A stretch of DNA of 64,000 bases from Candidatus Beckwithbacteria bacterium. GTDB taxonomy: Bacteria; Patescibacteriota; Microgenomatia; UBA1400; CG1-02-47-37. Location of the stretch: positions 251,532 through 315,531 of the forward strand of contig JAPLVF010000013.1 in the NCBI GenBank assembly GCA_026397255.1. Direction: 5' to 3'. The number at the start of each line of letters is the position of its first letter. The stretch's first letter is position 1. Shown in pieces: positions 8,205 through 62,166 of this stretch. Under the pieces are notes generated by a model, which was not told where the DNA came from, searched no databases, and saw only the letters and a list, made by a program, of their open reading frames with translations. Both the position numbers and the translations under genes were made by a program.

Positions 8205-8507
8205 ATGCTCAGCGGAGTGCAAAAATCCTGGCGCAAAGACTTATTCAGATTGTCAATAATGACATTAATTACCGTGGTCGTCTGGATCGGCTTGGCCACT
8301 TACCAAGCTTTAACCAAAAGCCAGATAAAACCGGATGTAGCCAAGGCAATTTTACCCTTGACGCCAACCCTCGACATTGACACAATGGAAAGGATTAAAC
8401 AAAAACAGGTTACTCCTAATATTGATTGGGGCAGCCTAACGCCGGTAAAGCCGGAAATTTTAGCGGTGCCCAAAGAAGCGACTGCCAGCAGCCATGCAAA
8501 CGAATAA
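8205..8507 (+). CDS. Small membrane protein, hypothetical.
   Basis: 100 aa with one TM helix (IMTLITVVVWIGLATY). The start is adjacent to the stop of the upstream gene (8204). Confidence 0.4.
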   Translation: MLSGVQKSWRKDLFRLSIMTLITVVVWIGLATYQALTKSQIKPDVAKAILPLTPTLDIDTMERIKQKQVTPNIDWGSLTPVKPEILAVPKEATASSHANE

Positions 8508-9828: not shown

Positions 9829-9836
9829 ATAAACTT

Positions 9837-15761: not shown

Positions 15762-17204
15762 ATGAAAAAGATTATTGTAATCGCGATTTTTATTCTAGCC
15801 TTGGGGTTGAGAGTTTATAAATTGAGTTTGAGCCCGCCGGGATTGTATGCCGATGAGGCGTCCATCGGTTACAATGCCTACTCTATCTTGAAAACTGGGA
15901 AGGATGAACATGGAGTTGCCTGGCCAATATTTTTCCAGGCCTTTGGTGATTATAAAAATCCGGTATTTATTTATTCTTTGGCGCCGCTAATCAAGCTAAA
16001 TGGTTTAAAACCAGAGACAATCCGCTTGGGAGCGGCTATCTGGGGCAGTCTGGCAATTCCCTTGTTAATGGCGGTGGCTTGGGCAGCGACGGCAAACTTT
16101 ACTTTAAGCTGTTTGGCTGGAGTAGTTTTGGCCTTAATGCCGTGGCACCTCCATTACAGCCGGCTAGGTTTTGAAGCGATTACTTTGCCAACCTTAATGC
16201 TTTTATCTTTATGGTTATTTCTTAAATGGCTAAAAAATAAAAAAATTCTCGCGGGGATCGCTTTGGCGCTAAGTTTATTTTTAATGTTTTACAGTTATAC
16301 CACTGCCCGCTTGTGGATGCCGCTATTGGGTTTGATTTTACTAATACTTTTTCGCAAACAACGGTTGAGTTTGACTAAAAAAATAGTTGTTTTTGATTCG
16401 CTGCTAATAATGTTTTTACCGCTTTTGATCTGGCTTAGACAATTTCCGGATAGTTTAACGGCACGGATGAATCAAATTGCCATTTGGGCAGATAAGCCCC
16501 CTTTGCAAAAAATGTGGCAACGTTTTTGGTCGACCTATGCCGGCCATTTTACTTTCAGCTGGCTTTTTTCCCGGGGCGACACAACCATCCGTCACTCCAG
16601 CGGCATCAGCTCAGAAATGCTGTTAAGTTTTGCCCCCTGGTTAATCATTGGTTTAATCATGCTAATAAAACAATGCCGCAAACAACCTTTTTGGCAGCTG
16701 ACCTTAATTATGATCGGCCTATTCCCGTTAGCGGCGGCTTTAACCCAAACCAGCCCGATTGCCACCAGAACTTTACAAGCGACCCCATTTTTCAGCCTGG
16801 CAATTGCTTGGGGAATAATAAAATTAAAAAAGCCGTTGTTGATTATTTTGGCCTTGATAATTATCGGGTTGGAGTTCGGCCGTTATTACCGGGATTTAAT
16901 TTATTTTTATCCAAAACGGGTGAGTCAACCGTGGGATGGTTTTGATAGCCAACTGGGCCCAGCCATTAAAACGGCTTACCAGAAAAGCCAAGAACAAAAA
17001 AAGCCATTATTTTTATCTAGTAAAATCGAGCAAGCTTATATTCAGGGTTTGTTTTTTACCCAAGCTGATCCCCGGCTCTGGCAGACAAAACATCAGACTC
17101 CATTTACGGTAGCTAAGTTTAAGGCAGTTAAAGCTGGTGAGATATGGGTGATTACCCGAGACGAATGTCCGCAAAAAGATAAAGATTATTGCGTTTTATT
17201 CTGA
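15762..17204 (+). CDS. GT-C fold glycosyltransferase, ArnT/PMT (GT39/GT83)-like.
   Basis: N-terminal loop YADEASIGYNAYSILKTGKDEHGVAWPIFF carries a DE motif and basic loop as in ArnT/PMT. About 12 TM helices and a C-terminal soluble domain. Confidence 0.65.
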   Translation: MKKIIVIAIFILALGLRVYKLSLSPPGLYADEASIGYNAYSILKTGKDEHGVAWPIFFQAFGDYKNPVFIYSLAPLIKLNGLKPETIRLGAAIWGSLAIPLLMAVAWAATANFTLSCLAGVVLALMPWHLHYSRLGFEAITLPTLMLLSLWLFLKWLKNKKILAGIALALSLFLMFYSYTTARLWMPLLGLILLILFRKQRLSLTKKIVVFDSLLIMFLPLLIWLRQFPDSLTARMNQIAIWADKPPLQKMWQRFWSTYAGHFTFSWLFSRGDTTIRHSSGISSEMLLSFAPWLIIGLIMLIKQCRKQPFWQLTLIMIGLFPLAAALTQTSPIATRTLQATPFFSLAIAWGIIKLKKPLLIILALIIIGLEFGRYYRDLIYFYPKRVSQPWDGFDSQLGPAIKTAYQKSQEQKKPLFLSSKIEQAYIQGLFFTQADPRLWQTKHQTPFTVAKFKAVKAGEIWVITRDECPQKDKDYCVLF

Positions 17205-18235
17205 TAAAGAAGTTCGGAAACGTAAGAATAGACAGACTGCCAGTTATTGTTAACCGGCAACAAGACCCACTGGCCGTAAAGACTACTGGGCGGATTGTAT
17301 AAAAGAGCGGGAATATCTTCGCTGCTGCTGCCTTGGTCAACGATCCCGGTGCGCAGACTGGAAGATTTAACTCTTAAAACCAGCTTAACTAAATCAATAT
17401 AGCTAGAGGTAGAAAGATCGGTTTTGACAGCATGCTTAAATTCTTGGTAAAGAGCTTTAAGCTTGGCAGGATTTAATAAAACGGAGGGTGATAACACTTT
17501 GTCTTTGAAGGCCAATAAAACCAATTGCTGGCGTTGGGCCCGGGCATAATCACTCCCTTCCTCTCCCTGGGAATAGCGGGAACGGACATATTTTAACGCC
17601 AGAGAACCATCCATGTGCTGTTGGCCGGGAGAAAAGGTTAAGGCTTCGTAGCGGCTGGATTCGGGTTCGGCGGTTTCTTTGCCCGGAACCGGATACTGCG
17701 GGTCGGTAAAACCATGAAGAACATTAAGATCAATTCCGCCCACAATATCGATGGCTCTTTCAAAACCGGAGAAATCCAGAAGAACAGCGTAATGGACCGG
17801 CTGGTTAATAATCTCGGAAACAGCACTTTTAGCCAAAACCAGGCCGCCGCCCAACTGCTTGGCTTCACCAAATTCGTAGGCAGTATTAATTTTAGCGGAT
17901 AGGGATTCTATCCAAATATCGCGCGGCAAAGAAATAAGAACCGTATCCGAGTGAGTTAAATTAACAGAAATAAACATAATACTGTCGGTTAAGTCGGCGC
18001 CGGGATGATCGCCGCCGCCAATACCCAGAAGCAAAAAGTTGGTGCGGCCGCGAAAAGAATTAAGCTGAGTAATGGCCGGATTAATCAGAGAAAAAATTTT
18101 AGTCAGCGGCTTGGTTTTCGGGATAAACCAGATAAAAAATAGAATGATTAAACTAATAACCGCTAAATAAAAAACCGGCCGGAGAAAGAGAATAAATTGG
18201 TAAGTACGACGTTTTAATTTAGGCACTAAAGACAT
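17186..18235 (-). CDS. LytR-CpsA-Psr (LCP) family glycopolymer phosphotransferase.
   Basis: N-terminal TM, then LLLGIGGGDHPGADLTDSIMFISVNL...LISLPRDIW... The LCP core motif is present. Confidence 0.8.
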   Translation of the reverse strand: MSLVPKLKRRTYQFILFLRPVFYLAVISLIILFFIWFIPKTKPLTKIFSLINPAITQLNSFRGRTNFLLLGIGGGDHPGADLTDSIMFISVNLTHSDTVLISLPRDIWIESLSAKINTAYEFGEAKQLGGGLVLAKSAVSEIINQPVHYAVLLDFSGFERAIDIVGGIDLNVLHGFTDPQYPVPGKETAEPESSRYEALTFSPGQQHMDGSLALKYVRSRYSQGEEGSDYARAQRQQLVLLAFKDKVLSPSVLLNPAKLKALYQEFKHAVKTDLSTSSYIDLVKLVLRVKSSSLRTGIVDQGSSSEDIPALLYNPPSSLYGQWVLLPVNNNWQSVYSYVSELLYQNKTQ

Positions 18236-26906: not shown

Positions 26907-27233
26907 ATGATTAAGAGGCGTAAAAACTATCTACCGACATTGCTGTTAGTTTTAATTCTGTGGGCGTTATTGGGTTTAATGCTTTATTTTGTCGAGCCGG
27001 CAATGGTAAAGGATATTTTAATACCGGGGTTGTATTTACCATTTTTCTTGTTGTTTTTTCCGGCGAGCAGTTTAACGTTAGGAATAATTTTTAACAACAG
27101 CCTGAGGGGGCTTTTGTTGGCCATTGGAATAACTGCCTGGTTAATTTTAAAAGTTTATCAACTGGATAATTGGCTGAATATAATTTTAATTTCGGGAATA
27201 ATAATAACAGTTGACAGATATCTGTCCACATAG
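26907..27233 (+). CDS. Small membrane protein, hypothetical.
   Basis: 108 aa with 3 TM helices. Confidence 0.4.
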   Translation: MIKRRKNYLPTLLLVLILWALLGLMLYFVEPAMVKDILIPGLYLPFFLLFFPASSLTLGIIFNNSLRGLLLAIGITAWLILKVYQLDNWLNIILISGIIITVDRYLST

Positions 27234-29123: not shown

Positions 29124-29945
29124 ATGTTTGTCGATACGCATTGCCATTTGAATTTTGAGGCGTTTGCCAAAGACTGGCAGAGCGTGGTGGAAGAAGCCAA
29201 GCAATCAGGTGTGAGAAAAATGATCCTGGTCGGGACAGATATTAAAACCTGTCAAAAAGCCATCGAGATGGCGAGGGAAACGGCTGAGCTTTACGCCACC
29301 ATCGGCTTTCATCCCCATCACGTTAAGTCTTTGGTCGGTCTTGCCTACGCCCGAGTCCAAATTTGCCAAATTACTGATCAATTAAAAAAACTGGGGAAAA
29401 ATAAAAAAGTGGTGGCTATTGGTGAGTGCGGTCTGGATTATCATGTTTATCGGAAAACAAAATATTCTTCGGAGGTAACTGAAGAGGAAAAAACTTTGCA
29501 AAAACAATTGTTCGGGATGCAAACCCAGTTGGCAAAAGAGTTAAAATTACCGCTCATTATTCATAACCGCGAGGCCGGGGAGGAAACCCTGGATACTTTA
29601 AATCATTTTTGCAAGAATGACGGCAAATACCCCCGGGGTGTATTTCACTGTATCTCCGGCAGTAAAAAGTTGTTGAAAAAAATTCTGGAAATGGGATTTT
29701 TTGTTGGCGTGGATGGAAATATTACTTACAGCCAAGAAGTGCAGGAGTTAGCCAAAAATGCGCCCCTGGACAGAATTTTACTGGAAACTGACGCACCATA
29801 TTTATCGCCCAAACACGACGGCAGCCGGAATTTTCCCCAAAGTGTTAAAATAGTCGCACAGTTTTTAGCGAAACTAAAAGGCACTTCAATTAATCAAATT
29901 GAGACGCAAACCACTAAAAACGCAGAAAAACTGTTTAAGTTATGA
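29124..29945 (+). CDS. tatD: TatD-family metal-dependent DNase/hydrolase.
   Basis: MFVDTHCHLNF at the N-terminus, GECGLDY, and a C-terminal ETDAPYL motif. Confidence 0.85.
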   Translation: MFVDTHCHLNFEAFAKDWQSVVEEAKQSGVRKMILVGTDIKTCQKAIEMARETAELYATIGFHPHHVKSLVGLAYARVQICQITDQLKKLGKNKKVVAIGECGLDYHVYRKTKYSSEVTEEEKTLQKQLFGMQTQLAKELKLPLIIHNREAGEETLDTLNHFCKNDGKYPRGVFHCISGSKKLLKKILEMGFFVGVDGNITYSQEVQELAKNAPLDRILLETDAPYLSPKHDGSRNFPQSVKIVAQFLAKLKGTSINQIETQTTKNAEKLFKL

Positions 29946-31429
29946 GGGGTTGGCTAGTAAACCACGAAAAAAAAGTCTTGCGGGCTTTAGAAATGATGCC
30001 GGGGTTAATTTCCTGGTCGTTGATTATCTTCCCTATCTGGGGGGCTTTTTTAGTCCCGACTCTGGTCGCATATTATATTATTGCTTTTGATGTTTACTGG
30101 CTTTACCGGTCAATTTGGACAGCCATGATGTCACTGTTGGCCCATTTTAGATTAAAAGCAGCTCAGGAATTTGACTGGTTAAAGGAAACCAAGTCGTTTT
30201 TGGATTGGCGGAAAGTTCATCACATTGTGGTAATCCCGACTTATAAAGAACCCGGGCATATTTTGGAAAGAACTTTAACGGCTTTGGCCAAACAAACATA
30301 CCCACGAGAAAATTTAACGGTGGTCATGGCCTTTGAGGAAAGAGAAGGAGAAGAAGCCAGACAAAAAGCAAAACATTTGCAAAGAACTTACGGAAAAGAA
30401 TTTGGAAATTTTTTAATAACTTTCCATCCGGATATCAGGGGCGAAGTTAAAGGGAAATCTTCCAATACAGCCTGGGGGGCAAAAATAGCCAAAAAAATGT
30501 TAGTGGATAAGCAAAAAGCGGACATTGATTATGTGACGATTACTTCCAATGATGCCGACGTCATCCTCCACCGACAATATTTTGCCTACTTAACCTTTAA
30601 ATTTTTAGATGACCCGAGGCGGTATCAAAAAATCTGGCAATCGGCCATACAGTTTTATAACAATATTTGGCGATTGCCGGCAATCACCCGAGCCTACAAC
30701 CGGGTGTCCAGCGTGGTTCAGACGGGCGTGTTAATGCGGCGTGACCGGCTGATGAATTTTTCCACCTATTCCATCAGTTTAAAACTGGTGGATAAAGTCG
30801 GCTATTGGGATGTGGACGTCATCCCGGAAGATTACCGGATGTTTTTTAAGATTTTTTATGCAATTAGGGGTAAGGTGGAAGTAGATCCAATCTTTTTACC
30901 TTCTTTTTGCGACGCGGCCGAATCAACCAGCTGGTGGAAAACAATGGTAAACCAATACGAACAGGTGAAACGCTGGTCTTGGGGGGTCAGCGACGATGCT
31001 TACATTATTTATAAATGGCTGACGGTGCCGAAAATGCCTTTTTGGGAAAAAACAATTAGGTCTTTATATGTGATTAAGGATCATATTTTGTGGCCGGTAA
31101 ACTGGTTCGCGATTACCCTGGGGGCTAATATTCCTCCACTTTTGAATAAAGAGTTTGGGCGAACGATTATCGGGAAAACCTTACCGCAAGTGTCTTCAGG
31201 AATATTAACTTTGTCTTTGGTGGCCTTTGCGGCAATATTTTTCGTTGACTGGCAAGAAAAACCAAAAGCCCCCAAAGAATTAGCCTTGTGGAAAAAGATT
31301 TTCAGCCCGCTGGAATTTGTTTTGCTGCCGGTGGTGGGATTTTTCTTTACCGCCCTGCCGGGATTAGACGCACATACGCGACTGCTTTTGGGAAGATATC
31401 TGGAGTACCGGGTAACAGAAAAAGTGTAG
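29942..31429 (+). CDS. Processive GT2-family membrane glycosyltransferase (cellulose/chitin/PNAG-synthase-like).
   Basis: VVIPTYKEPG (DXD region), ITSNDADVI, and QxxRW motif QYEQVKRWSWG. TM helices at both ends. Confidence 0.7.
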   Translation: MRGWLVNHEKKVLRALEMMPGLISWSLIIFPIWGAFLVPTLVAYYIIAFDVYWLYRSIWTAMMSLLAHFRLKAAQEFDWLKETKSFLDWRKVHHIVVIPTYKEPGHILERTLTALAKQTYPRENLTVVMAFEEREGEEARQKAKHLQRTYGKEFGNFLITFHPDIRGEVKGKSSNTAWGAKIAKKMLVDKQKADIDYVTITSNDADVILHRQYFAYLTFKFLDDPRRYQKIWQSAIQFYNNIWRLPAITRAYNRVSSVVQTGVLMRRDRLMNFSTYSISLKLVDKVGYWDVDVIPEDYRMFFKIFYAIRGKVEVDPIFLPSFCDAAESTSWWKTMVNQYEQVKRWSWGVSDDAYIIYKWLTVPKMPFWEKTIRSLYVIKDHILWPVNWFAITLGANIPPLLNKEFGRTIIGKTLPQVSSGILTLSLVAFAAIFFVDWQEKPKAPKELALWKKIFSPLEFVLLPVVGFFFTALPGLDAHTRLLLGRYLEYRVTEKV

Positions 31430-31448
31430 GGGTAATGTACAATAAGCT

Positions 31449-32873
31449 ATGTGGCAGAAGTTTGTTCATTGGATTGAGAAAAATGAGGGCTTAATTTTAA
31501 TTTTATTGCTGGTGATAATTTTACGGATCCCCTCTTTATACGAACCATATTGGTACGGCGACGAGGGAATTTACCTGACCTTAGGGCAAGCGTTAAGAAA
31601 GGGGTTGGTGTGGTACCGGGATATTCACGATAATAAGCCGCCGATGCTTTACCTAGTGGCGGCTATGGCCGGTAATTTATTTTATTTTAGGTTAATTCTG
31701 CTGGTTTGGTTTGAGGCAACGGTGGTGGCCTTCTTCAGATTAATGCAGTTAATGCTGCCTGGCAAAAAAGCGGCCTGGTATTGGTCAACTTTGATGATGA
31801 TTGGCTTAATCACTTTGGTTGAAGGAAATATTGCCAACGCGGAAATTTTTATGGCGTTACCCACAATTATCGGATTGCTGTTGGTTTTTGGGGGAAGACG
31901 GTTGTTAGCGGCAGGCTGTTTTTTCTCAATGGCGTTTTTATTTAAAGTGCCGGCAGGATTTGATTTTGGGGCGGTTTGGCTCTGGCTAATAATACTTGAA
32001 AAAAACAGACTTAAAAATGTTTTCCGGCTGTCACTGGGATTTATTTTGCCAATTTTGGGGACGATGGGGTATTACGCAATTGCCGGCGGCTTGGAGCCTT
32101 ATGTCCGTTCGGCGCTCTTTCAAAATATCGGCTATTTAAGTTCCTGGAACAATAGCCAATCCGGTCTGGGCGGGCGGGCACTAATCCTGATCGTTTTGCT
32201 GGGGATAATCTTTATTTTAGCTAAAAAATTCAAACTAAAGACCAAGCTTAGCCTCACAATGATGTGGACGGTGATGGCTTTATTTGGGGCATTATTATCA
32301 GCCAGACCATATCCACATTACTTAATTCAACCAGCTATACCGGGAGCAATTTTAATCAGTTGGTTTATTTTTAGCCAAAAGAGGGTTGTCAGGCTGATGA
32401 TTTTGGGCTTGGCTGGTGTCACGATTTTGGCATATTGGCAAATCCATTTTTGGGGTTACCCGATTTTGGCCTATTATAAAAATTTCGGTAATTACGTTTT
32501 AAAGAAAAAATCAACCGAGGATTATCGGAATTGGTTTGATGCAAAAGTTAATCAGAATTATAAAGTGGCAGCAGAGATAAAGGAAAAAACCTTAAAAGAA
32601 GAGCGCATTTTTATTTGGGGAGACGAACCGGGGATTTACGCCTTAGCGGAAAGGCTGCCCATTGGCCGCTACACGGTTGCCTATCATATAATTGATTTTA
32701 ACGGCTTTAAAGAAACCATAGAGGCATGGGATAAACAACCGCCGAAAGTGGTGGTGGTAATGGAATATGAAAGCAAAAAATTTCCGGAAATGGATAGCCG
32801 ACTAAGCACTAATTATGTTTTAACTAGTGAAATTAACCAGGCATTAATTTACCGCCGAGTCGAAACAAAATGA
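31449..32873 (+). CDS. Polytopic membrane protein, GT-C-like putative glycosyltransferase.
   Basis: Early loop YGDEGIYLTLGQAL (DE motif). About 12 TM helices and a C-terminal soluble domain. Confidence 0.5.
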   Translation: MWQKFVHWIEKNEGLILILLLVIILRIPSLYEPYWYGDEGIYLTLGQALRKGLVWYRDIHDNKPPMLYLVAAMAGNLFYFRLILLVWFEATVVAFFRLMQLMLPGKKAAWYWSTLMMIGLITLVEGNIANAEIFMALPTIIGLLLVFGGRRLLAAGCFFSMAFLFKVPAGFDFGAVWLWLIILEKNRLKNVFRLSLGFILPILGTMGYYAIAGGLEPYVRSALFQNIGYLSSWNNSQSGLGGRALILIVLLGIIFILAKKFKLKTKLSLTMMWTVMALFGALLSARPYPHYLIQPAIPGAILISWFIFSQKRVVRLMILGLAGVTILAYWQIHFWGYPILAYYKNFGNYVLKKKSTEDYRNWFDAKVNQNYKVAAEIKEKTLKEERIFIWGDEPGIYALAERLPIGRYTVAYHIIDFNGFKETIEAWDKQPPKVVVVMEYESKKFPEMDSRLSTNYVLTSEINQALIYRRVETK

Positions 32874-33253
32874 AAACACTGAAGCTGGATTTCAAGACAG
32901 TAAAAAAACAAGTGGATACTTTGGCTTCCGACAAGGCTGCAAAAAATGGTTTAAGGCTGCTTTTTGCGGCTCTGGGGGTGAGTTGGTTATGGCTAGGGGG
33001 CTGGTGGCATAAATTACCGCCGGAAGTGCCGTTGTTTTATAGCCTGGCTTATGGTGAGGGCCGGCTGGCCGACAGATGGGAATTATGGTTGTTGCCGGCC
33101 TTGATGCTCTTAGTTGATTTAATCTCGATTAAAGCAGCAGGAAATTTAATTGAAAAAGACAAATTACTGGCGCAAATATTAGTGTGGATAGCGGCAATCA
33201 TAACGACCATGATGTTAATTGCTTTGGTAAAAATAGTTTTTTTAATTACCTGA
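32870..33253 (+). CDS. Small membrane protein, hypothetical.
   Basis: 127 aa with 3-4 TM helices. Overlaps both neighbouring genes by 4 nt, so it sits within an operon. Confidence 0.4.
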   Translation: MKTLKLDFKTVKKQVDTLASDKAAKNGLRLLFAALGVSWLWLGGWWHKLPPEVPLFYSLAYGEGRLADRWELWLLPALMLLVDLISIKAAGNLIEKDKLLAQILVWIAAIITTMMLIALVKIVFLIT

Positions 33254-33256
33254 TTT

Positions 33257-34351
33257 ATGCCCCTGATTCAATTAATTAAACCGTTAATTGTGGCTGTAAT
33301 TTTAAGTTGGCTAAGTACCGGGGCAGTAATTAAAATTTATAAAAAATTGAATTGGCTGGATGATCCCAAAAAACAAAAACACCCTAAGGTGGTGCATCAA
33401 TATCCGGTGCCAAGGGGTGGCGGTTTAGCTATTGCTTTGGCCATTATTAGCTGCAGTTTATTATTTCTGCCCTTAGATAAACATTTGACCGGTATTCTTT
33501 TGGGAACAGTGGTTTTGGCAGTCTTGGGGACAATTGACGATGTAAAAAACTTAAATCCATATAAACGGTTACTTTGGGGTTTCGTCGCGGCCGGCATAGT
33601 GGTAGCGGCCGGCATTGGCGTACCTTATATTTCCAACCCCTTGAAGGCCGGGGCAGTGATTGATTTATCCCAACCACAAGTCCAGGTTTTCTTTTTCGGA
33701 AAATTAAGAACCATCTGGGTTTTAGCTGACATCATGGCTTTAATCTGGATTGTAGGAACAATGAATTTTGTCAATTGGGCTAAGGGGGTAGACGGACAGT
33801 TGCCGGGAATTGTGGTGATCGCCGGAATTATTGTCGGTTTGTTAAGCTTAAAGTTTGCCGGGGATGTGACCCAATGGCCGGTAATTGTTTTGGCTTTGAT
33901 TTTGGCCGGAGCTTATTTAGGATTTTTAGTTTGGAATTTTTATCCGCAGAAGATTATGCCGGGGTACGGCGGCGGGGCTTTGGCCGGTTATTTTTTGGCA
34001 GTGTTGGCGATTTTATCAGGAGCAAAAGTGGCCACGGCAATTTTGGTTTTAGGCGTACCGATGATTGATGCGATTTACAGTGTTTTAAGGCGGGTTTTGG
34101 CCGGAAAATCTCCGGTTTGGGGCGACCGGGGACACTTGCACCACAAATTAATGGATTTAGGTTGGGGGAAAAGGCGAATTGCTGTATTTTATTGGCTGGT
34201 ATCCGGGGTTTTGGGTTGGTTAGCCCTGAAATTGAATAGTCAATATAAACTCTATACAATGATTTTATTAGGAGTAATTATCGGAGGAGCGCTTTTATGG
34301 TTGAATATGGCTACCTACTTCTTAAAGAAGCCCGGCCAAGACAAATCCTGA
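33257..34351 (+). CDS. Polyprenyl-phosphate N-acetylhexosamine-1-phosphate transferase of the MraY/WecA family (Pfam Glycos_transf_4).
   Basis: NFVNWAKGVDGQLPG resembles the N-x-x-N-x-x-D-G-x-D-G-L motif. 10-11 TM helices. No cell-division genes nearby, so a WecA-like initiating transferase is favoured over MraY. Confidence 0.65.
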   Translation: MPLIQLIKPLIVAVILSWLSTGAVIKIYKKLNWLDDPKKQKHPKVVHQYPVPRGGGLAIALAIISCSLLFLPLDKHLTGILLGTVVLAVLGTIDDVKNLNPYKRLLWGFVAAGIVVAAGIGVPYISNPLKAGAVIDLSQPQVQVFFFGKLRTIWVLADIMALIWIVGTMNFVNWAKGVDGQLPGIVVIAGIIVGLLSLKFAGDVTQWPVIVLALILAGAYLGFLVWNFYPQKIMPGYGGGALAGYFLAVLAILSGAKVATAILVLGVPMIDAIYSVLRRVLAGKSPVWGDRGHLHHKLMDLGWGKRRIAVFYWLVSGVLGWLALKLNSQYKLYTMILLGVIIGGALLWLNMATYFLKKPGQDKS

Positions 34352-35223
34352 AAAATTTAGCCTTGTTCACCGGTTTAATATTTTCCGGATGGCTGTTTAT
34401 CGCGGAAAAGTTTTGGATAGTGGCCATGTCTTTTGTAGTTTTTTCAATTCTGACCGGGTCGATTTATATTTTCAACGACATTATTGATATTAAGGCTGAT
34501 AAAAACCATCCGTTTAAAAAATTCCGGCCCTTGGCGAGCGGTAAACTGCCGATTCCCATCGCCTTATTTTTTAGTCTGGCGGGAATATTAATCAGCCTAA
34601 CCTTGGGTTGGTCACTGTCTTATTTTTTATTTTTAATTATGATCGGCTATATAGGATTGCAGCTACTATATACTTTGAGTTTTAAACATAAGCCTATTCT
34701 TGACGTGATGACGATTGCGATGGGGTTTGTGATCAGGGTTTACGGCGGCGCCCTGGTGATCAGCGCCCATTTGAATGTATGGCTGCTCTTATGTATTATT
34801 TCTTTCTCATTATTTTTGGCGATCGGAAAGAGGCGAAGTGAATTGACTTTATTACAAGGGCAGTCGGCCAGCCGCCTGGTTTTAGGACGATACCCAGAGA
34901 AACTACTGGATTTGTATACGGCGATGTTCGCCAATACCACCTGGTTGACTTACGCTCTATTTACTTTTATGTTTCCGGCGTTTGAATTTAAGGGCAGAGT
35001 CCTAACTTTGTTATCAACCCTACCCCACACTTTCCGCTCAGAAAAATGGCTAATGGCCACAATTCCTCTGGTAATTTACGGAGTTATGCGTTATTTGCAA
35101 TTGATTTACGAGCGTAATGAAGGCGAATCGCCGGAAAAAATTCTCACTTCAGACAAAGGAATGTTAATCACGGTAGTGATTTGGGGATTGATGACAATCG
35201 GAATTCTTTACGGGTTAGGATAA
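34297..35223 (+). CDS. UbiA-superfamily prenyl-phosphate transferase, decaprenyl-phosphate phosphoribosyltransferase (DPPR synthase)-like.
   Basis: FNDIIDIKADKNHPFKKFRPLASG (Asp-rich motif 1 plus an HPxKxxRPxAxG-like stretch). 8-9 TM helices. The 5' end overlaps the upstream gene by 55 nt, so the true start may be downstream. Confidence 0.65.
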   Translation: MVEYGYLLLKEARPRQILKNLALFTGLIFSGWLFIAEKFWIVAMSFVVFSILTGSIYIFNDIIDIKADKNHPFKKFRPLASGKLPIPIALFFSLAGILISLTLGWSLSYFLFLIMIGYIGLQLLYTLSFKHKPILDVMTIAMGFVIRVYGGALVISAHLNVWLLLCIISFSLFLAIGKRRSELTLLQGQSASRLVLGRYPEKLLDLYTAMFANTTWLTYALFTFMFPAFEFKGRVLTLLSTLPHTFRSEKWLMATIPLVIYGVMRYLQLIYERNEGESPEKILTSDKGMLITVVIWGLMTIGILYGLG

Positions 35224-35461
35224 AGATTTATTGATTAAATCGAAATGAATCTTCGACGGATTGAATCACGACCTCCCATGCATTTAAGTCATCTAAAGAT
35301 ATTCTGCTGAGTGATTTTGGTGAGTCAGGATTATTTATCTCATCTTGAGTGATAGATTTTTCTCCTTTTAGGGCTAAGCTTTTCCCAGAGACCGGAATTG
35401 AAACAATTATAGGAGTTGCCTCTTCTTCTATGCCAGCAATGGAAAATATTTGTACTTCTAT

Positions 35462-35710
35462 TCAATCTATCTGTCTACTAATTTGTTTATGCTGTCTACT
35501 AATTTGTTTATGAAGGAGGGGGTATTTGGCTCTAGCAACTGGTGACAGCAACCCGTATAGCAGTTTATCCCCAAAATTCCGTTCATCAGGGATGGGTTGA
35601 CCATGATCTAGTAATAACTTTCTGGCTTGCGCGGTAAGAGCCGTTATTTTCTCAACTTTTGGTTGATTTTCCTGATTGAAAGCCTTAGCTTCCTCTAGTA
35701 ATAATCCCAT
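35462..35710 (-). CDS. Small hypothetical protein containing an in-frame 21-nt tandem duplication.
   Basis: 82-aa ORF ending ...HKQISRQHKQISRQID, produced by the duplicated 21-mer at 35471-35512. Confidence 0.3.
   Translation of the reverse strand: MGLLLEEAKAFNQENQPKVEKITALTAQARKLLLDHGQPIPDERNFGDKLLYGLLSPVARAKYPLLHKQISRQHKQISRQID
35471..35512. repeat. Perfect 21-nt tandem duplication (ctgtctactaatttgtttatg x2).
   Basis: Read directly from the sequence. Confidence 0.9.
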
Positions 35711-35751: not shown

Positions 35752-36663
35752 TTACTCGTATTTTTCGGCGTACTTGCCGGAAATCCAGCCTTCTTTACCG
35801 GTAGCATATTCGATTTTGTACCAACCGGATTGGCTATCAACTAAAGGAAATTTCTGGCCATGGTCAACTTTGGTTAGTTCTTCGCCGCTGGTTGACGGCT
35901 CGCTTCTGACCCTTACCCAACCGGTATCAGGAGCGTTAATCTGAACGTAGGGCCGGGCCAGTTCAGCTGAACCGGTGGCGGTTTTGGGCGAGGGCTTGGG
36001 GGTGGCTTTAGGCGAGGCCGCCGGGGTGGCTTCAGGTATTTCTTCCTGAGGAGCAATCTCCGCCAAACGAGCTAACTGAACAGAAGCAATTAATTTATTC
36101 CCTTTAACGGTTTTGGCTTTAATAGTTTTATCCTTAAACCCAGGTGAGGAAATTAATAAAACGTGGTCACCTTCGGAAATTTTATCTAAAGAAATCGGGG
36201 CAAAGCCACGGGGTTCGCCGTCCAGATTAACCACGGCGCCGTCGGGAGTAGTCACGACAGAGATGGAACTAGAACTTTTATCGGCAATTGGTTCAAAAGA
36301 CAAAATTTCGCCGGAAGACAAGTCGGCAGTTAAGGCTAATTCGCGATCAACCACAGTGAGAATGCCCGGGCTTAAAGTAACCCGTCCTTCCCAAGGATTC
36401 AGGGCTTGTCCGGAAGACTCAGGCACAATTTTTAAAACATAGTCGCCGGATTTTAATTTTTCGTTATAATAAGGCGTTTGGCCTAAATGCTGGCCGTCAA
36501 GAAAAACAGTCGCCTGGGGAGTAGTAGAAACAGAAAGGGCAGCCTGTTTCCGGCCGGGGAAAGTACAACCGGAGAAAAAAACTATAAACAGCAATAAGCA
36601 AGTAGTAAGTAGTGATTTTTTCAGCATCGGGAAAATTTTAACAATAAATCTGATAAAATACAA
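35752..36663 (-). CDS. Lipoprotein-like secreted protein with two PEGA domains and a C-terminal bacterial SH3 (SH3b) domain.
   Basis: N-terminal signal with Cys (FFSGCTF). PEGA-like TPQATVFLDGQHLGQTPY and VTTPDGAVVNLDGEPRG. C-terminal WVRVRSEPSTSGEELTKVDHGQKFPLVDSQSGWYKIEY is SH3b. Confidence 0.6.
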   Translation of the reverse strand: MYFIRFIVKIFPMLKKSLLTTCLLLFIVFFSGCTFPGRKQAALSVSTTPQATVFLDGQHLGQTPYYNEKLKSGDYVLKIVPESSGQALNPWEGRVTLSPGILTVVDRELALTADLSSGEILSFEPIADKSSSSISVVTTPDGAVVNLDGEPRGFAPISLDKISEGDHVLLISSPGFKDKTIKAKTVKGNKLIASVQLARLAEIAPQEEIPEATPAASPKATPKPSPKTATGSAELARPYVQINAPDTGWVRVRSEPSTSGEELTKVDHGQKFPLVDSQSGWYKIEYATGKEGWISGKYAEKYE

Positions 36664-36677
36664 ATAAGGTTTGTTAT

Positions 36678-36748
36678 GGCCTGGTGTCCGAATAGCTAGG
36701 AAGCGGTCTGCAAAACCGCGTACGTGGGTGCAAATCCCGCCCAGGCCT
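36678..36748 (+). tRNA. tRNA-Cys (anticodon GCA), with CCA not encoded.
   Basis: Perfect 7-bp acceptor stem (GGCCTGG/CCAGGCC) and 5-bp anticodon stem (GCGGT/ACCGC). Loop CTGCAAA carries U33 and A37. Discriminator U73 is the Cys identity element. D-stem is 3 bp. T-arm is GTGGG-TGCAAAT-CCCGC with an atypical G at position 55 and one G-U pair. Confidence 0.6.
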
Positions 36749-36751
36749 CTT

Positions 36752-37933
36752 ATGCATATTGTTCAAATTTGTCAACGTTTCTATTATGGTCATGGACAAG
36801 AGATACATGTATATAATCTCTCTAATGAGTTAGCTCGACTGGGGCATAAAATTACTATTGTTACTTCTGATATCAATGCTTCTGATATTTTCAAAAAAGA
36901 CCTAAAATTACATGAAAATATTAATATCATGATTAGTAAAGCCATAAAGATAAAATATCCAACAAACCAACTATTGTTCCCAAATTTAGGAGAAGAGTTA
37001 CTACAAATGAATAATGTCGACATTATTCATGCTCATGGGGCAATGTGTTATTCGTCTCTTGTTGGTTTGACTATTGCTAAGACTAAGAAAATTCCTTTTG
37101 TCTTTACACCACACTTTCACCCATGGAGATTCTTTGAACAAAGGCCATACCGTTATATACGAGAGGCTTACGAAAAAACTTTTACTATTCCAATTATGCG
37201 GGAATCATCGGCAGTGATTGCAGTTTCTCCATTTGAAAAAAATTATTTAGTTGTGCGTCGTAAGCTTTCTCAGGAAAAAATTCATGTCGTTGCCAATGGA
37301 ATTAACGCTTTTTACTACCCCTCTGTTGTGTCGCGACGAGCGGTTCGCCAGCACCATGATATTCCAGAAAATAAACGATATCTTATCGCTTTTGGTACAA
37401 AAACTGATCCTCGAAAAGGAGTTGATCGTACACTCCAGGTTTTTGACCTAATCAATAAAAAAATTCCTGAAACACAACTTATAATCGTTGGCTGGAAGTA
37501 TAAAAAGAAGGCTGACCACATTGCAAATCTAATGGATGCCTTGCCTTGTAAAAAAAACGTCACAACCCTTGGTTATGTATCTGAGGATGAAAAAGTGGCA
37601 TTAATAAAAATGAGTGACGTCCTCATTTCCCCCACAAGCTATGAAGCTTTTGGAATTATTCTTGGAGAAGCGATGATGTTAAAAGTTCCAGTCGTAGTGA
37701 CCAGAGTTGGCGGGACACCCTTTATTGTTCGACATCGAAAAACTGGACTTACCGTCGGTAGATATAATAGCATTAATAAATTTGCACAATATACACTAGA
37801 ATTACTCCGAGATAACAAGCTACGTGAGCGTATGGGAGAAGAAGGAAAACGACTGGTTAAAAAATACTTTACGTGGAAAAAAATTACAAAGGATGTTAAT
37901 CGAGTATATTTAAGTGTACTTAAAAAGCAATAA
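36752..37933 (+). CDS. GT4-family (GT-B) glycosyltransferase. The start was moved to MHIV; the track ORF begins at 36671 and runs through the tRNA.
   Basis: C-terminal EAFGIILGEAMMLKVPVVVTRVGG (GT4 EX7E-type region). About 394 aa. Confidence 0.8.
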   Translation: MHIVQICQRFYYGHGQEIHVYNLSNELARLGHKITIVTSDINASDIFKKDLKLHENINIMISKAIKIKYPTNQLLFPNLGEELLQMNNVDIIHAHGAMCYSSLVGLTIAKTKKIPFVFTPHFHPWRFFEQRPYRYIREAYEKTFTIPIMRESSAVIAVSPFEKNYLVVRRKLSQEKIHVVANGINAFYYPSVVSRRAVRQHHDIPENKRYLIAFGTKTDPRKGVDRTLQVFDLINKKIPETQLIIVGWKYKKKADHIANLMDALPCKKNVTTLGYVSEDEKVALIKMSDVLISPTSYEAFGIILGEAMMLKVPVVVTRVGGTPFIVRHRKTGLTVGRYNSINKFAQYTLELLRDNKLRERMGEEGKRLVKKYFTWKKITKDVNRVYLSVLKKQ

Positions 37934-39095
37934 GTGCCTTATGGCGATTGATTATCAGCTTAAACAGATTAAGGTGCTGAAGAGCAACGTTAGGCCAAGT
38001 CATTAACCGACCAAGACTATAAGCATTCTTCTCTATTTCCTGCCTTTGTTTTGGATTTTGCCAATAATAAATTACTTTCTGGGCCAGTGCCTGATAATTA
38101 CGAAAAGGAACTAAGATCCCCCGGTTATGGGAAAGAACTTCTCGGGCATAAAGATAAGGCGTGGAAATGCAAAATTTCCCGGCTCCAAGCGCATAACTTA
38201 AGGCTCCGGAGGCAGATTGTTGAGGCGATAAATAAGGTGTGACATAAATATCGATTGTTCTTAACCATAAAATTAACTTCTCGAGGGAAAGATATTGATT
38301 GATAAATTTAACATTATCTCTAATGCCTAATTGTTTAATCATTTTTTTAAGGGATTGGCGATAAGCTTCGCCGTCACGCTGAAGGACAACAGGATGGGTT
38401 TTCCCGATAACCAGGTATAAAACCTGAGGAAGGTGCTGTTTGATGATGGCGACCGCTTTTAAAGAATATTCAATTCCTTTGCTTTGAGTAATCAGATTGA
38501 TGTTGCCTAAAATTAAACGCTTGGCCAATTTCTTTTTTCGTTTATATTTGTCTGTGGAGCAGTAAGCTAAGTCCGGAATACCATGAGGAATAACCACAAT
38601 TTTTTGTGTCGGGATGCCATAATCTTTAACTAATTTTTGCCGGCTTTGATTGATCATGACCGTAACCGCTTGTGATTTGGCAATGATCTTTTTCAGAATC
38701 AGGCCGTGGCGAGACCGAGGGTCATCGGAAAGGCTGTGAATAGTGGTGACGAGAGGTAATTTTAAAGCATTAATAAATGGCAGTAAATAATCACCACATT
38801 GGCCACCGAAAAGGCCAAATTCATGCTGAAGAGAAACTAAGTCTGCCCCGGAATGATTAATGAACTCGGCCGCTTTAAGATAGTCGTGGGGCTGAAGGTG
38901 GTTTAAAACAAACTTAACCTCTTTGGGATAATCCAGACTTTCTTGTCCCCGGTTGACAGCAATAATTTTAGCTAAGTGATAAGGATTTAAGAGATTAACG
39001 GCATTAGTCAGGTTTTTAGTATAAGTGGCAATGCCACAGTGCCGAGGAATATACGAGGATACATAAATAATCCGCTTGGCTAAATTTTTTATCAT
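37920..39095 (-). CDS. GT4-family (GT-B) glycosyltransferase.
   Basis: Typical group-1 glycosyltransferase C-terminal half. Convergent with the upstream GT4 gene, overlapping it by 14 nt. Confidence 0.7.
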   Translation of the reverse strand: MIKNLAKRIIYVSSYIPRHCGIATYTKNLTNAVNLLNPYHLAKIIAVNRGQESLDYPKEVKFVLNHLQPHDYLKAAEFINHSGADLVSLQHEFGLFGGQCGDYLLPFINALKLPLVTTIHSLSDDPRSRHGLILKKIIAKSQAVTVMINQSRQKLVKDYGIPTQKIVVIPHGIPDLAYCSTDKYKRKKKLAKRLILGNINLITQSKGIEYSLKAVAIIKQHLPQVLYLVIGKTHPVVLQRDGEAYRQSLKKMIKQLGIRDNVKFINQYLSLEKLILWLRTIDIYVTPYLSPQQSASGALSYALGAGKFCISTPYLYAREVLSHNRGILVPFRNYQALAQKVIYYWQNPKQRQEIEKNAYSLGRLMTWPNVALQHLNLFKLIINRHKALIAF

Positions 39096-40105
39096 GATTT
39101 TTTTATGGCGGCCACAAGAGAGGCAAGCTTGACTGATTTGGCACCAATACGGTTGTCAGCGGCGCCATAATAAATATAAAGAGTCCCGTCTTTGACGACT
39201 GCACCGGTGGGAAAGACAACGTTATTGACAGTGCCGGTTTTTTCCCAATAAATGCGGGGTGAAAACAGAGGTTCTTTTAATCGACCGAGAACTTTAGTGG
39301 GATTTTTAAGATCAAGCAAGGCGGCGCCGGCGTGATAAATCTTCCCCAAGGGTGTATCTTCAACCGCATGATAGATAATTAACCAACCGTCTTTTGTTTT
39401 AATCGGCGGACAGCCGCCGCCAACATTGCGGCTTTCATACCAAAAAAGAGGCTCAAGGACAATAAAATTGCCTAAATTTTTTAAATAATGACGCCAGAAA
39501 TGTTCTGATAACTTCGAAAAATCTTTAAAGTAAATTATTTGAATTCCAGGCAGAATCCGATGAAGCATGGCAAATTTATGATGGAATTTTTGGGGAAAAA
39601 GAGAGGCGTCTTTTTCATAAAGTAAAACATCTTGCCCTTTTTTTTCTTTGTAGAACATCTCGAACATGCGATACCGCTCTTTAATTTTTGACTCACGGAA
39701 AATGTCTTCGGCCTTATCATAAGAGATTGCCGGCGAAATCAGGCCGTGTTTAGCAAAATGAATAAGGTCCTGACTGGTAGCATAAGCAATGCGGGCGTTT
39801 TGGCCATCATAAGCAGTATAGAAAAGATAATATGTTCCTTGAAAAAAGGTAATCCGGGGATCTTCCACGCCTTTTTTTTCGTATTCGTTTTCAGGAAAGA
39901 GAATTGGCTTGGGTAGTCTTTTAACAACCTTGTTGTTGACCAACTGGCAGTAGCCAATGGAAGAAATGTCATTTTGGTTGATTGCCCGATAAAACATGTG
40001 GGTAACGTCATTAACCTGAATGCAGGCCGGATTGAGAACAGCTTTGGCTTCAAATTCCCGATGGGTTTTCTCTAAAATTATTCCCTCGTCTTTAATTTTT
40101 AACAT
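39092..40105 (-). CDS. GH130-family glycoside phosphorylase/hydrolase (beta-mannoside phosphorylase-like).
   Basis: NPACIQVNDVTHMFYRAIN...DPRITFFQGTYYLFYTAYDG...GGCPPIKTKDGWLIIYHAV matches the GH130 five-bladed propeller. Confidence 0.7.
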   Translation of the reverse strand: MLKIKDEGIILEKTHREFEAKAVLNPACIQVNDVTHMFYRAINQNDISSIGYCQLVNNKVVKRLPKPILFPENEYEKKGVEDPRITFFQGTYYLFYTAYDGQNARIAYATSQDLIHFAKHGLISPAISYDKAEDIFRESKIKERYRMFEMFYKEKKGQDVLLYEKDASLFPQKFHHKFAMLHRILPGIQIIYFKDFSKLSEHFWRHYLKNLGNFIVLEPLFWYESRNVGGGCPPIKTKDGWLIIYHAVEDTPLGKIYHAGAALLDLKNPTKVLGRLKEPLFSPRIYWEKTGTVNNVVFPTGAVVKDGTLYIYYGAADNRIGAKSVKLASLVAAIKKS

Positions 40106-40139
40106 TACTAATTATAGCTTATCTGATAAAATACAGGTT

Positions 40140-41366
40140 ATGCTAAAACAAATTGCGATGATTTCCTACCATACCTGCCCTTTAGCAGCCGAGGAAGGTA
40201 AAGAAACCGGCGGAATGAATGTTTATGTGCTGGAGTTATCAAAAGAACTGGCGAAACAGGGGTGGAAAGTGGATATTTTTACCAGAGCGCAAGGTTTAAA
40301 TTGCAGTAAAATCGTTAATTTCCGGCCAAACCTAAGGGTAATTCACTTAAGCGCCGGGGTTCGAGGGTATATTTCTAAAAAAGAGCTGCCCCGCTACATT
40401 GATGAATTTACCCAAAAAGTGATTAATTTTATCCACAAAGAAAAAATCAGCTACCGTGTTTTACACGCTCACTATTTTATGTCCGGTTTAATCGGGGCGA
40501 ATTTAATCAAAGAAGCGTTCCCGAATTTACCTTTAATCATGCACTTCCACACCCTGGCATTAATGAAAAATCTGGTGGCCAGAGACGAAGGCGAAAGAGA
40601 GTCAGAATACCGGGTAAAAAGTGAGTTTAAACTGGTTAAAATAGCGGATAAAATTATTGCCTCTAGTCTAAACGACAAAACCTTTATCAGTACGCTTTAT
40701 AACTGCCCGGATGAAAAAATCAGAGTGATTGCTCCGGGCGTAGACATAAAGTTATTCCACCCGATAGCCAGAGAAAAAGCCCTGAAATTTATTAAAGAAC
40801 CGGAAACAAGTAAGATTATTCTTTTTGTTGGCCGGGTGGAGCCGCTAAAAGGAGTGGATGTGTTAATGTATGCTTTGAAAATCTGTTTAAAAAAACGGCC
40901 GACAGTCAATTTCCGCCTGTTAATTGTCGGGGGGAATAACCGAAGCCGGTATTTTAACTGTAAGGAGTTAAAAAGACTGAAGTCTTTACAAGAAACTTTA
41001 GGTTTGGGTTCAATTGTCAAGTTTGTTTCCCAGCAGAAACAGAAAGAGCTGCCTTTTTATTACAACGCCGCCGATCTGGTAGTGATGCCGTCATATTACG
41101 AAACTTTCGGCATGACTGCCCTGGAGGCAATGGCCTGCGGCGCGCCGGTGATTACCACCGATACTTCGGGGGCGTCGGAAATTATCGGCAAACAGCGCAA
41201 TTTAATTATCCCTGTCAGCAATCCTTTAACCCTGGCATCAGAGATAATATTCAGTTTAAAGCAGAAAAAGAACTTACAGACGCAAAAACAAATGTTAAGT
41301 AAAGTCAGATATTTATCCTGGAAAAAAGTGGCCCAAGAAACGGCTAAATTATACCGGGAGCTCTAA
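40140..41366 (+). CDS. GT4-family glycosyltransferase, MshA/sucrose-phosphate-synthase-like. The start was moved to MLKQIAM.
   Basis: N-terminal HTCPLAAEEGKETGGMNVYV is the donor/acceptor loop typical of MshA-like GT4 enzymes. C-terminal E..E region FGMTALEAMACGAPVITT. Confidence 0.75.
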   Translation: MLKQIAMISYHTCPLAAEEGKETGGMNVYVLELSKELAKQGWKVDIFTRAQGLNCSKIVNFRPNLRVIHLSAGVRGYISKKELPRYIDEFTQKVINFIHKEKISYRVLHAHYFMSGLIGANLIKEAFPNLPLIMHFHTLALMKNLVARDEGERESEYRVKSEFKLVKIADKIIASSLNDKTFISTLYNCPDEKIRVIAPGVDIKLFHPIAREKALKFIKEPETSKIILFVGRVEPLKGVDVLMYALKICLKKRPTVNFRLLIVGGNNRSRYFNCKELKRLKSLQETLGLGSIVKFVSQQKQKELPFYYNAADLVVMPSYYETFGMTALEAMACGAPVITTDTSGASEIIGKQRNLIIPVSNPLTLASEIIFSLKQKKNLQTQKQMLSKVRYLSWKKVAQETAKLYREL

Positions 41367-57888: not shown

Positions 57889-58103
57889 GTTAGCGGATAA
57901 TTGCCCCAAGAACAAGGTGCTATTTGCGGAGAATCGTTTTAACCTATTCGGTTAGTACTTTTTTCTAGGACTGCTTTACAGGCTAAATTTGTTTTTAGTG
58001 ATTAGTCTGTTAACTAAATATTTTTTCGTTAGCACTCTTTTACATGAAATCTTCTTGAGTCAAAAAAGTTAGTTTTAAAAAACTAAACAAGGAGAAAAAG
58101 GGT

Positions 58104-59816: not shown

Positions 59817-59819
59817 AGT

Positions 59820-62002: not shown

Positions 62003-62166
62003 GTTTATCCACAGTTTATCAACAAAAAAATCCACCGAAAAAGACGGGGTTGTCAACCGGTATTTTTAGCAGTGAAATAAGGGGAAAAATCGATTATAAT
62101 ACACTTATCAACAAAGACTATTAATATTACTACTATTTTTAATTCTAATTAGTAATAAGGAGAGAT
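62003..62166. other. Candidate oriC. DnaA boxes TTATCCACA (62005-13), TTATCAACA (62016-24 and 62105-13) and TTGTCAACC (62050-58), plus an AT-rich unwinding element (62111-62160) immediately upstream of dnaN.
   Basis: Read directly from the sequence. The canonical dnaA-oriC-dnaN arrangement. Confidence 0.65.

Follow-up and report, generated by a model that had tools for sequence, protein, structure and literature searches.

A string of five plus-strand genes at positions 29942-35223 of a 64,000-nucleotide stretch of a Candidatus Beckwithbacteria genome (contig JAPLVF010000013.1; the whole stretch is called the window below) includes a UbiA homologue that, judged by its sequence, we assign with high confidence to the polyprenyl-phosphate phosphoribosyltransferases (PPPRS) that depend on phosphoribosyl pyrophosphate (PRPP). 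On balance we favor the reading that the string as a whole is a lineage-conserved envelope-glycan module of Microgenomates-type bacteria of the candidate phyla radiation (CPR), built around a lipid-linked pentofuranose donor, and we consider this reading moderately probable. CPR bacteria, or Patescibacteria, account for a large share of bacterial diversity and are mostly uncultured episymbionts. Next to nothing is known about how their cell envelope is built chemically.

The listing of open reading frames (ORFs) agrees with the original prediction of five co-directional genes at these coordinates:

29942-31429, plus strand: membrane-integrated family 2 glycosyltransferase (GT2) of the hyaluronan/cellulose-synthase type, 495 amino acids
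31449-32873, plus strand: GT-C glycosyltransferase, 474 amino acids
32870-33253, plus strand: small membrane protein of no recognized family, 127 amino acids
33257-34351, plus strand: PNPT-superfamily (MraY/WecA-like) membrane protein, 364 amino acids
34297-35223, plus strand: UbiA-superfamily polyprenyl-phosphate 5-phosphoribosyltransferase of the Rv3806c type (PPPRS, also called decaprenyl-phosphate phosphoribosyltransferase, DPPRS), 308 amino acids

Each of the five genes encodes a membrane protein of glycan synthesis, either lipid-linked or membrane-embedded, and their tight packing leaves no space for additional genes. The stop of the upstream TatD gene overlaps the start of the GT2 gene by 4 nucleotides, the GT-C and small-protein ORFs also overlap by 4 nucleotides, and the PNPT-like and UbiA ORFs overlap by 55 nucleotides, an arrangement that recurs in the closest relatives. 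The GT-C gene lies ~1.4 kb upstream of the UbiA gene in the same string. Consensus scans returned 22 promoter-like sites against 21.1 expected, which is chance level, and 19 terminator-like sites against 12.9 expected (~1.4 standard deviations above). Since these scans are uninformative, the limits of the operon are drawn from gene packing alone.

The UbiA-family enzyme

The motif string singled out in the original prediction, NDIIDIKADKNHPFKKFRPLASG, is found in the UbiA ORF. Pfam places the protein in the general UbiA family only (PF01040, E 6e-17). With NCBIfam, the three decaprenyl-phosphate phosphoribosyltransferase models score 207.6 (NF008977, E 2.7e-61), 183.4 (NF008978) and 136.5 bits, and the model for the HAD-UbiA fusion type (NF006088) scores 143.6 bits. 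The UbiA models for quinone, heme O, geranylgeranylglyceryl-phosphate, chlorophyll and EboC enzymes all give <=46 bits, with 46.4 as the top non-PPPRS value, and are thus about four-fold lower or worse than the DPPRS score. Close relatives (P0059, P0093) carry the NCBI name decaprenyl-phosphate phosphoribosyltransferase, and JGI likewise gives close relatives this name. In a search of all PDB sequences, the sole matches were the structures of Mycobacterium tuberculosis Rv3806c (8J8J and 8J8K, E 5.6e-32), and no other UbiA-fold structure appeared at E<0.01.

The Rv3806c structure identifies eleven residues (R22, K28, Y70, N73, D77, K87, R90, Q135, Y138, K143 and Y157) that contact PRPP, Mg2+ or decaprenyl phosphate, and the phosphoribose-binding residues, K28, Y70 and Q135 among them, are absent from prenyltransferases (PMC10994848). 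Their equivalents in the window protein are, in the same order, R13, K19, Y57, N60, D64, K74, R77, Q122, Y125, K130 and F144. Ten of the eleven are identical and the last is a conservative change of Tyr157 to Phe, a residue also found at this position in some mycobacteria (PMC10994848). Across an alignment of 45 diverse family members, N60, D61, D64, D68, K74, R77, R179 and E182 are invariant, and so are the residues of the NDxxDxxxD and KRxxE motifs that were mutated in Citrobacter ORF15 (PMC11127046). The protein has neither a fused phosphatase nor any other extra domain in its 308 amino acids. It belongs to a large family that comprises 1,021 clusters (50% identity) at E<=1e-30.

The assignment to the DPPR-synthase type rather than to the quinone, heme or archaeal-lipid prenyltransferases is therefore borne out by the NCBIfam scores, the PDB match and the contact residues. 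An ordinary prenyltransferase that serves quinone, heme O or archaeal-type ether lipid synthesis would account for the general PF01040 match and for nothing else. The protein does not group with quinone or archaeal-lipid prenyltransferases, whose models stay at <=46 bits against 207.6 for DPPRS, the PDB search at E<0.01 brought up no further structure of the UbiA family, and the phosphoribose-binding residues are kept, so that we regard this possibility as effectively refuted at the level of sequence.

The conserved locus and its other products

Related loci were collected with one genome per species, and the best 80 of 593 relatives were kept. The search used a close alignment of 11 UbiA sequences, the alignment of 45 being too diverse. 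Gene counts were obtained by BLAST and clustering of ORFs and are lower bounds, with many loci ending at contig edges. A CPR-type locus is present in all 80, with the UbiA gene in 80/80, the PNPT-like gene in 79/80, the small-protein gene in 71/80, GT2 in 59/80, GT-C in 56-58/80, TatD in 53/80 and methionyl-tRNA synthetase (MetRS) in 49/80. The gene order is constant (TrpR-like, MetRS, TatD, GT2, GT-C, small protein, PNPT-like, UbiA), and its repetition in most of the 80 loci means that the five-gene arrangement is not due to chance. The partner most closely tied to the UbiA gene is the PNPT-like one, which lies next to it in 79 of the 80 loci. GT2, the PNPT-like protein and UbiA are conserved at or above the level of MetRS, and GT2 is the best-conserved protein of the module, with a median identity to the window protein of 56-58% compared to 45-51% for MetRS. 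The other recurrent neighbors are housekeeping genes that encode an M23 peptidase, GroEL/ES, RmuC, a helicase-nuclease, GAPDH, PGK, Maf, RecA, TrxR and MurB.

By record title, the loci belong to Beckwith-, Woese-, Collier-, Davies-, Ames-, Gottesman-, Blackburn-, Pace- and Cerribacteria, and the contexts of more distant UbiA representatives showed that the module stays within the Microgenomates clade. Many third-party records of metagenome-assembled genomes (L007, L012, L014, L019, L021, L022 and others) labeled ‘uncultured Pseudomonadales’ or ‘Gammaproteobacteria’ bear a fully syntenic CPR-type locus, as do records labeled ‘Spirochaetia’, ‘Vitreimonas’ and ‘Nevskiaceae’; these organism labels look wrong, and other titles are merely generic.

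When the PDB was searched by sequence, neither single-protein nor profile queries yielded anything useful for GT2 and the small protein or any match for GT-C, which also has no Pfam match. Structure prediction was thus used for GT2 and GT-C. The GT2 protein matches Pfam GT2 models below the gathering score, and its homologs bear PF13632 and carry names such as cellulose synthase or PNAG synthase-like. Its motifs, D204xD206, E296-D297 and Q341-V-K-R344-W345, are invariant in the orthologs, and its predicted architecture consists of two N-terminal transmembrane helices, a GT-A domain, interface helices and C-terminal transmembrane helices. The AlphaFold2 model (pLDDT 88.8) has as its top Foldseek matches the Chlorella-virus hyaluronan synthase CvHAS (8SNE/7SP8) and BcsA (5EJ1/4P00), together with the minimal cellulose-synthase-like PcManGT (6YV7), Xenopus XlHAS1 and chitin synthases; CvHAS, BcsA and XlHAS1 are matched with a probability of 1.0 and E about 1e-9. 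Both its motifs (D, DxD, ED and QxxRW) and this model, resembling hyaluronan synthase (HAS) and BcsA, support the earlier reading of GT2 as a synthase of the processive type.

The predicted structure of GT-C (AlphaFold2, pLDDT 90.4, pTM 0.90) matches solely GT-C enzymes in Foldseek, namely ArnT, AftA, STT3, ALG12, DPY19, PglB, AftB and PimE, which substantiates that a true GT-C adjoins the UbiA homolog. Homologs bear PF13231 (PMT_2) and are named as ArnT family or GT39. The catalytic acid of GT-C enzymes usually sits just past the first transmembrane helix, and the window protein has an invariant D38-E39 pair within a YWYGDE motif at exactly this place. It ends in a small C-terminal alpha/beta domain (~residues 385-474).

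The 127-amino-acid protein has three hydrophobic segments in the family-wide profile, two of which exceed the threshold in a single-sequence hydropathy scan. A conserved loop, LPPxxPLFYSxPxGExQL, joins the first segment to the second. In position and size it corresponds to ORF14, PsPA7_6247 and Rv3789, the small flippase or hub proteins of related systems, and the search for homology to them was negative. Twelve of 66 orthologs match DUF1648 weakly, none of the 66 matches GtrA or SMR in Pfam at E<=1, and the protein has no PDB match. A comparison with EmrE gave an hhalign probability of 0.6%, to which we attach little weight. An SMR/GtrA flippase was thus rejected as an identity for this protein, with neither Pfam nor the EmrE comparison giving a signal. 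In 32 related loci, a second small protein (26907-27233, plus strand, 108 amino acids) with about four hydrophobic helices is kept upstream of the TrpR-like gene. It was also considered as a flippase and set aside, as it matches no family, nor EmrE (again of little weight). Nor is it related to the 127-amino-acid protein.

The PNPT-like protein matches PF00953 (E 2e-25) and falls well below the cut-offs of the specific NCBIfam models (TIGR00445 mraY, 55.3 against 192; TIGR02380 wecA, 71.1 against 326; NF053644 archaeal MraY, 82.1 against 450). It keeps a DD motif (D94, D95) that is invariant in 67 orthologs, and an HLHH motif (H293, H295, H296) that resembles the HIHH motif of WecA. When the protein and the profile of its 67 orthologs are aligned to MraY structures, the Asp of the FMGD(T/V)GS motif is replaced by Y237. 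Among the orthologs this position is Tyr in 46, Phe in 16, Trp in 3 and Asp in 2. The aligned Asp is D265 of Aquifex MraY, which we take to be essential, catalytic and Mg-binding. The first Asp of NxxNxxDGxDG is likewise replaced, by K176 (Lys in 51 of the 67, Ser in 10, Thr in 3, Ala in 2 and Gly in 1), and a new invariant Asp, D271, appears one helix later. With the Mg-binding Asp of the family exchanged for Tyr, Phe or Trp in 65/67 orthologs, the earlier label of polyprenyl-phosphate HexNAc-1-phosphate transferase is unsafe, and the non-canonical active site leaves it unjustified. The protein may have an altered chemistry or a non-catalytic role. We also rejected it as the MraY of this organism, given a score far below the cut-off, the loss of the catalytic Asp and the absence of flanking mur genes in the 80 loci.

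A proposed pentofuranose route and its alternatives

A lipid-linked pentose donor that feeds extracytoplasmic GT-C enzymes, as the original prediction had suggested, is in our view the best reading of the locus. At the cytoplasmic face, the UbiA enzyme would move 5-phosphoribose from PRPP to polyprenyl phosphate, a step strongly supported by its sequence, and the product would be polyprenyl-P-ribofuranose-5-P, as with Rv3806c and Citrobacter ORF15. Next, the 5-phosphate would be cleaved off and the lipid-linked sugar carried to the outer face. Candidates or helpers for these steps are the three-helix 127-amino-acid protein and the atypical MraY/WecA-like protein encoded by the gene that overlaps UbiA. 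Fold, adjacency and precedent suggest that the neighboring GT-C could use polyprenyl-P-pentofuranose to glycosylate an acceptor outside the membrane, and a PMT-like GT-C at 11.9 kb possibly uses this donor, too. From adjacency, the likeliest acceptor may be a polysaccharide extruded at the same membrane site by the HAS/BcsA-like GT2; a surface protein (a pilin, or the PEGA/SH3 protein encoded next to UbiA) is an alternative. The transferred sugar would most simply be D-ribofuranose, the parsimonious choice given that no epimerase accompanies the module.

The identity of the sugar bears on a Mycobacterium-type arabinan route, the form in which the original prediction had cast the analogy. Here, the lipid-linked ribose would be converted to D-arabinofuranose by DprE1/DprE2 encoded elsewhere, and the GT-Cs would be arabinofuranosyltransferases that build an arabinan-like polymer or arabinosylate pilins, like TfpW in P. 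aeruginosa. The Rv3806c-like UbiA enzyme would fit, as would AftA and AftB among the structural matches of GT-C and the presence in the window of several GT-Cs, a LytR-CpsA-Psr (LCP) ligase (17186-18235) and PilN/PilO genes. However, Pfam and NCBIfam searches with all substantial ORFs of the 64-kb window found neither a DprE1-type FAD oxidase (FAD_binding_4/ALO) nor a DprE2-type SDR (adh_short), and DprE1/DprE2 are not among the recurrent neighbors of the 80 loci (±10 kb). All non-actinobacterial arabinofuranose systems surveyed by Kelly et al. include DprE1/E2 homologs (PMC11127046), and in P. aeruginosa these share a cluster with the PPPRS. The AftA/AftB matches do not surpass those to mannosyl- and glucosyltransferases. 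Read literally, as an arabinose donor made with DprE1/DprE2 and a phosphatase, the mycobacterial analogy is thus not sustained by the genes of the window or by the recurrent neighbors. Arabinose as the transferred sugar is unsupported, and we consider the arabinan route very unlikely.

The window also encodes a protein of unusual architecture (54796-57915, minus strand, 1039 amino acids) in which an RmlB/GalE-like SDR domain (residues 33-343) and DUF4012 (622-756) are joined in one chain. It was rejected as a lipid-pentose epimerase, as the SDR domain is generic, the gene is 20 kb away and there is no linkage.

Several observations weigh against the pentofuranose module. The UbiA score of 207.6 bits is a near miss of the NF008977 equivalog cut-off of 234, which is why NCBI names the window protein merely ‘UbiA prenyltransferase family’, and the fold matches of GT-C reveal neither donor nor acceptor. 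More distant UbiA relatives (34-38% identity) occur in unrelated contexts. Twelve Daviesbacteria-type loci (L053, L054, L057, L065, L067, L068, L073, L075, L077, L078, L081 and L034) keep the small-protein, PNPT-like and UbiA genes with a longer GT2 and have no GT-C within ±10 kb, so that GT-C is not an obligatory partner in cis; their GT2 has ~95 extra N-terminal residues with additional helices, and DD replaces ED. The housekeeping genes for MetRS and TatD lie within the same conserved string, and conserved order alone is thus no proof of functional coupling. The searches of the window found no PAP2/HAD phosphatase, SMR/GtrA flippase or MATE protein, and neither a phosphatase nor an SMR/GtrA flippase is among the recurrent neighbors (±10 kb), which leaves the dephosphorylation/flipping and transfer steps without assigned enzymes; a phosphatase could be encoded elsewhere in the genome. 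Biochemical or glycan data on these organisms were not found in the literature.

The position of MetRS and TatD, the Daviesbacteria-type loci without GT-C, the lack of a linked flippase or phosphatase and the uninformative promoter and terminator scan would also be compatible with genes that are syntenic and functionally separate, in a segment (TrpR-like, MetRS, TatD and so forth) that is frozen in Microgenomates. GT2 would then make an independent secreted polysaccharide, the PNPT-like protein would serve another lipid-linked pathway and the PPPRS would provide a donor for an unlinked enzyme. Against this stand the shared nature of the five products as membrane proteins of glycan synthesis, the short overlaps at the TatD/GT2 and GT-C/small-protein junctions and the longer one between the PNPT-like and UbiA genes, which the closest relatives share and which goes with their near-universal adjacency. 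In addition, a second GT-C has independently arrived beside UbiA in other lineages, and the pairing of PPPRS with GT-C is an established pattern elsewhere. We consider functional separation unlikely and retain the pentofuranose module.

A more far-reaching version of the module, which we put forward tentatively and hold to be doubtful, is a lineage-specific and possibly essential core wall polymer of Microgenomates. GT2 would extrude the backbone, to which ribofuranose or, if there is no phosphatase, ribose-5-phosphate would be added outside the cell. The MraY/WecA-like and three-helix proteins would have taken on the part of the missing phosphatase, flippase or scaffold in an obligate complex with the PPPRS. 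Such a complex is consistent with the overlapping genes and the adjacency in 79/80 loci. If this were true, decoration with ribose-5-phosphate would create a teichoic-acid-like anionic polymer by a route not seen before.

The UbiA enzyme family, the logic that leads from PPPRS to GT-C and the database naming of close relatives as DPPR synthase are already known. A literature search for links between CPR and DPPR synthase, DprE1 or UbiA found nothing relevant, and a fixed, lineage-wide five-gene module in CPR bacteria therefore appears new. The same appears to hold for the pairing of a PPPRS module with a synthase-type GT2, for a three-helix protein and a MraY/WecA-like protein without the canonical Asp in place of the usual flippase and phosphatase, and for the lack of a linked epimerase in the module. 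A module as conserved as a tRNA synthetase from Beckwith- through to Pacebacteria (the first eight lineages named above) predicts a specific envelope component, a pentofuranose-bearing glycan with ribofuranose as the simplest sugar. It would extend the newly recognized route from PRPP through polyprenyl-P-pentose to GT-C from O-antigen decoration and actinobacterial walls to CPR. The MraY/WecA-like protein, which lacks the Mg-binding Asp and is coupled to a phosphoribosyltransferase, is a concrete lead for a new activity in a well-studied superfamily of drug targets.

Neighboring genes and comparison with known systems

The original prediction had also pointed to further GT-C genes at 11.9-17.2 kb. 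The block found there comprises:

11932-13248, minus strand: PMT-family GT-C (PF02366, PF16192, PF13231)
13133-14566: large ORF without family matches
14580-15746: GT87-like gene
15762-17204: ORF with an ArnT-like N-terminal ‘YADEAS’ motif
17186-18235: LCP (LytR-CpsA-Psr) ligase

The first of these proteins is the ortholog, at 36-39% identity, of a PMT-family GT-C whose gene sits right downstream of UbiA in about 19-20 loci of the Pacebacteria type (cluster 15). The link between this block and the UbiA gene is thereby backed by other lineages, and the protein may be a second enzyme that draws on the lipid-linked donor. Just upstream of the block, the region 7069-11318 encodes PilN and PilO followed by Big_13/fn3 and a Pro-rich protein. 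By analogy with P. aeruginosa, where pilin is glycosylated by a PPPRS-dependent GT-C, a pilin is a conceivable acceptor.

On the other side of the cluster, one gene is convergent to UbiA:

35752-36663, minus strand: surface-type protein with PEGA and SH3 domains (Pfam PEGA, SH3_3) and a Pro/Thr/Ala/Ser-rich linker

It is found in this convergent position directly downstream of UbiA in 46/80 loci. Linkers of this composition are typical targets of O-glycosylation, and we speculate that the protein could be a glycan acceptor; its membership in the module is uncertain. Between the two genes is a hypothetical ORF of 160 amino acids (35228-35710, minus strand) that is split by a TGA at 35462-35464. 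In a Logan contig (L001) that is identical apart from this site, the codon reads GGA (Gly), and the difference is either a single-base nonsense polymorphism or an assembly difference.

Right downstream, the region 36671-41366 forms a second glycan/glycolipid locus with two GT4 genes, a GH130 gene of the beta-1,4-mannooligosaccharide phosphorylase family and a GT4 that is MshA-like (300 bits with TIGR03449, whose cut-off is 462). This locus is not at that position in a Beckwithbacteria CG10 relative (L003). Near the end of the window, rnpA, yidC and a KH/R3H gene (58520-60337, minus strand) precede dnaA and dnaN (60590-63297), and these genes indicate that the window adjoins the region of the chromosomal replication origin.

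With the enzymes of synthase-dependent polysaccharide secretion (hyaluronan synthase, BcsA, chitin synthase), the GT2 has in common its D, DxD, ED and QxxRW motifs as well as a membrane architecture predicted to be HAS-like. It differs in having no PilZ, BcsB or further partner domains, and the similarity to known synthases is so low that Pfam matches stay below the gathering score. We know of no earlier description of a synthase-type GT2 paired with a decoration route of PPPRS and GT-C.

The decaprenyl-phosphoarabinose pathway of mycobacteria (Rv3806c, Rv3807c, DprE1/DprE2 and Rv3789, with AftA-D and EmbA-C) begins with a homologous enzyme, identical to the window UbiA at 10/11 contact residues, and its consumers are GT-Cs as well. 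A WecA-family gene and an LCP ligase also belong to the logic of the mycobacterial wall polymer. However, DprE1/DprE2, the PAP2 phosphatase and the GtrA-like Rv3789 were not found near the window cluster, the GT2 is a membrane-embedded synthase and not of the GlfT type, and the GT-C is small (474 amino acids) and without the large carbohydrate-binding domains of Emb/AftD.

The D-arabinofuranosylation of pilin in P. aeruginosa Pa5196/PA7 depends on PsPA7_6245-6249 and TfpW, and a small three-helix GtrA-like protein may be its hub. The likeness lies in a non-actinobacterial PPPRS that supplies a GT-C glycosylating a surface protein, and the window, too, has parts of a type IV pilus (PilN/PilO). 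In P. aeruginosa the phosphatase, DprE1 and DprE2 are part of the PPPRS cluster, whereas none of them was found in the window cluster.

A closer precedent than mycobacterial arabinan synthesis is the three-component pentofuranose pathway, described for ORF15-ORF14-ORF12 of Citrobacter youngae O1/O2 (Kelly et al., PNAS 2024, PMC11127046). There, the PPPRS makes undecaprenyl-P-ribofuranose from PRPP, a small membrane protein is the proposed flippase and a GT-C adds alpha-pentofuranose to the finished glycan in the periplasm. The sugar depends on the accompanying enzymes, with ribofuranose where there is no epimerase, xylofuranose with an SDR epimerase and arabinofuranose with DprE1/E2 (PMC11127046). 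In the window cluster, too, a UbiA-family PPPRS goes together with a GT-C and a small membrane protein of several helices, and the NDxxDxxxD and KRxxE residues are the same. The systems differ in that the phosphoribose 5-phosphatase, a HAD domain fused to the PPPRS or a separate PAP2 or other enzyme, has no counterpart domain in the 308 amino acids of the window UbiA. The small protein of the three-component systems has four helices and is EmrE/ArnE-like or GtrA-like, whereas that of the window has three and no detected similarity to SMR, EmrE or GtrA. Their GT-C belongs to CAZy GT136, and homologs of the window GT-C carry PMT_2 (GT39/GT83-like). The window module furthermore adds a HAS/BcsA-like synthase and an atypical MraY/WecA-like protein, and it is a fixed, lineage-wide chromosomal module, whereas the systems of Kelly et al. 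are variable accessories of the O-antigen.

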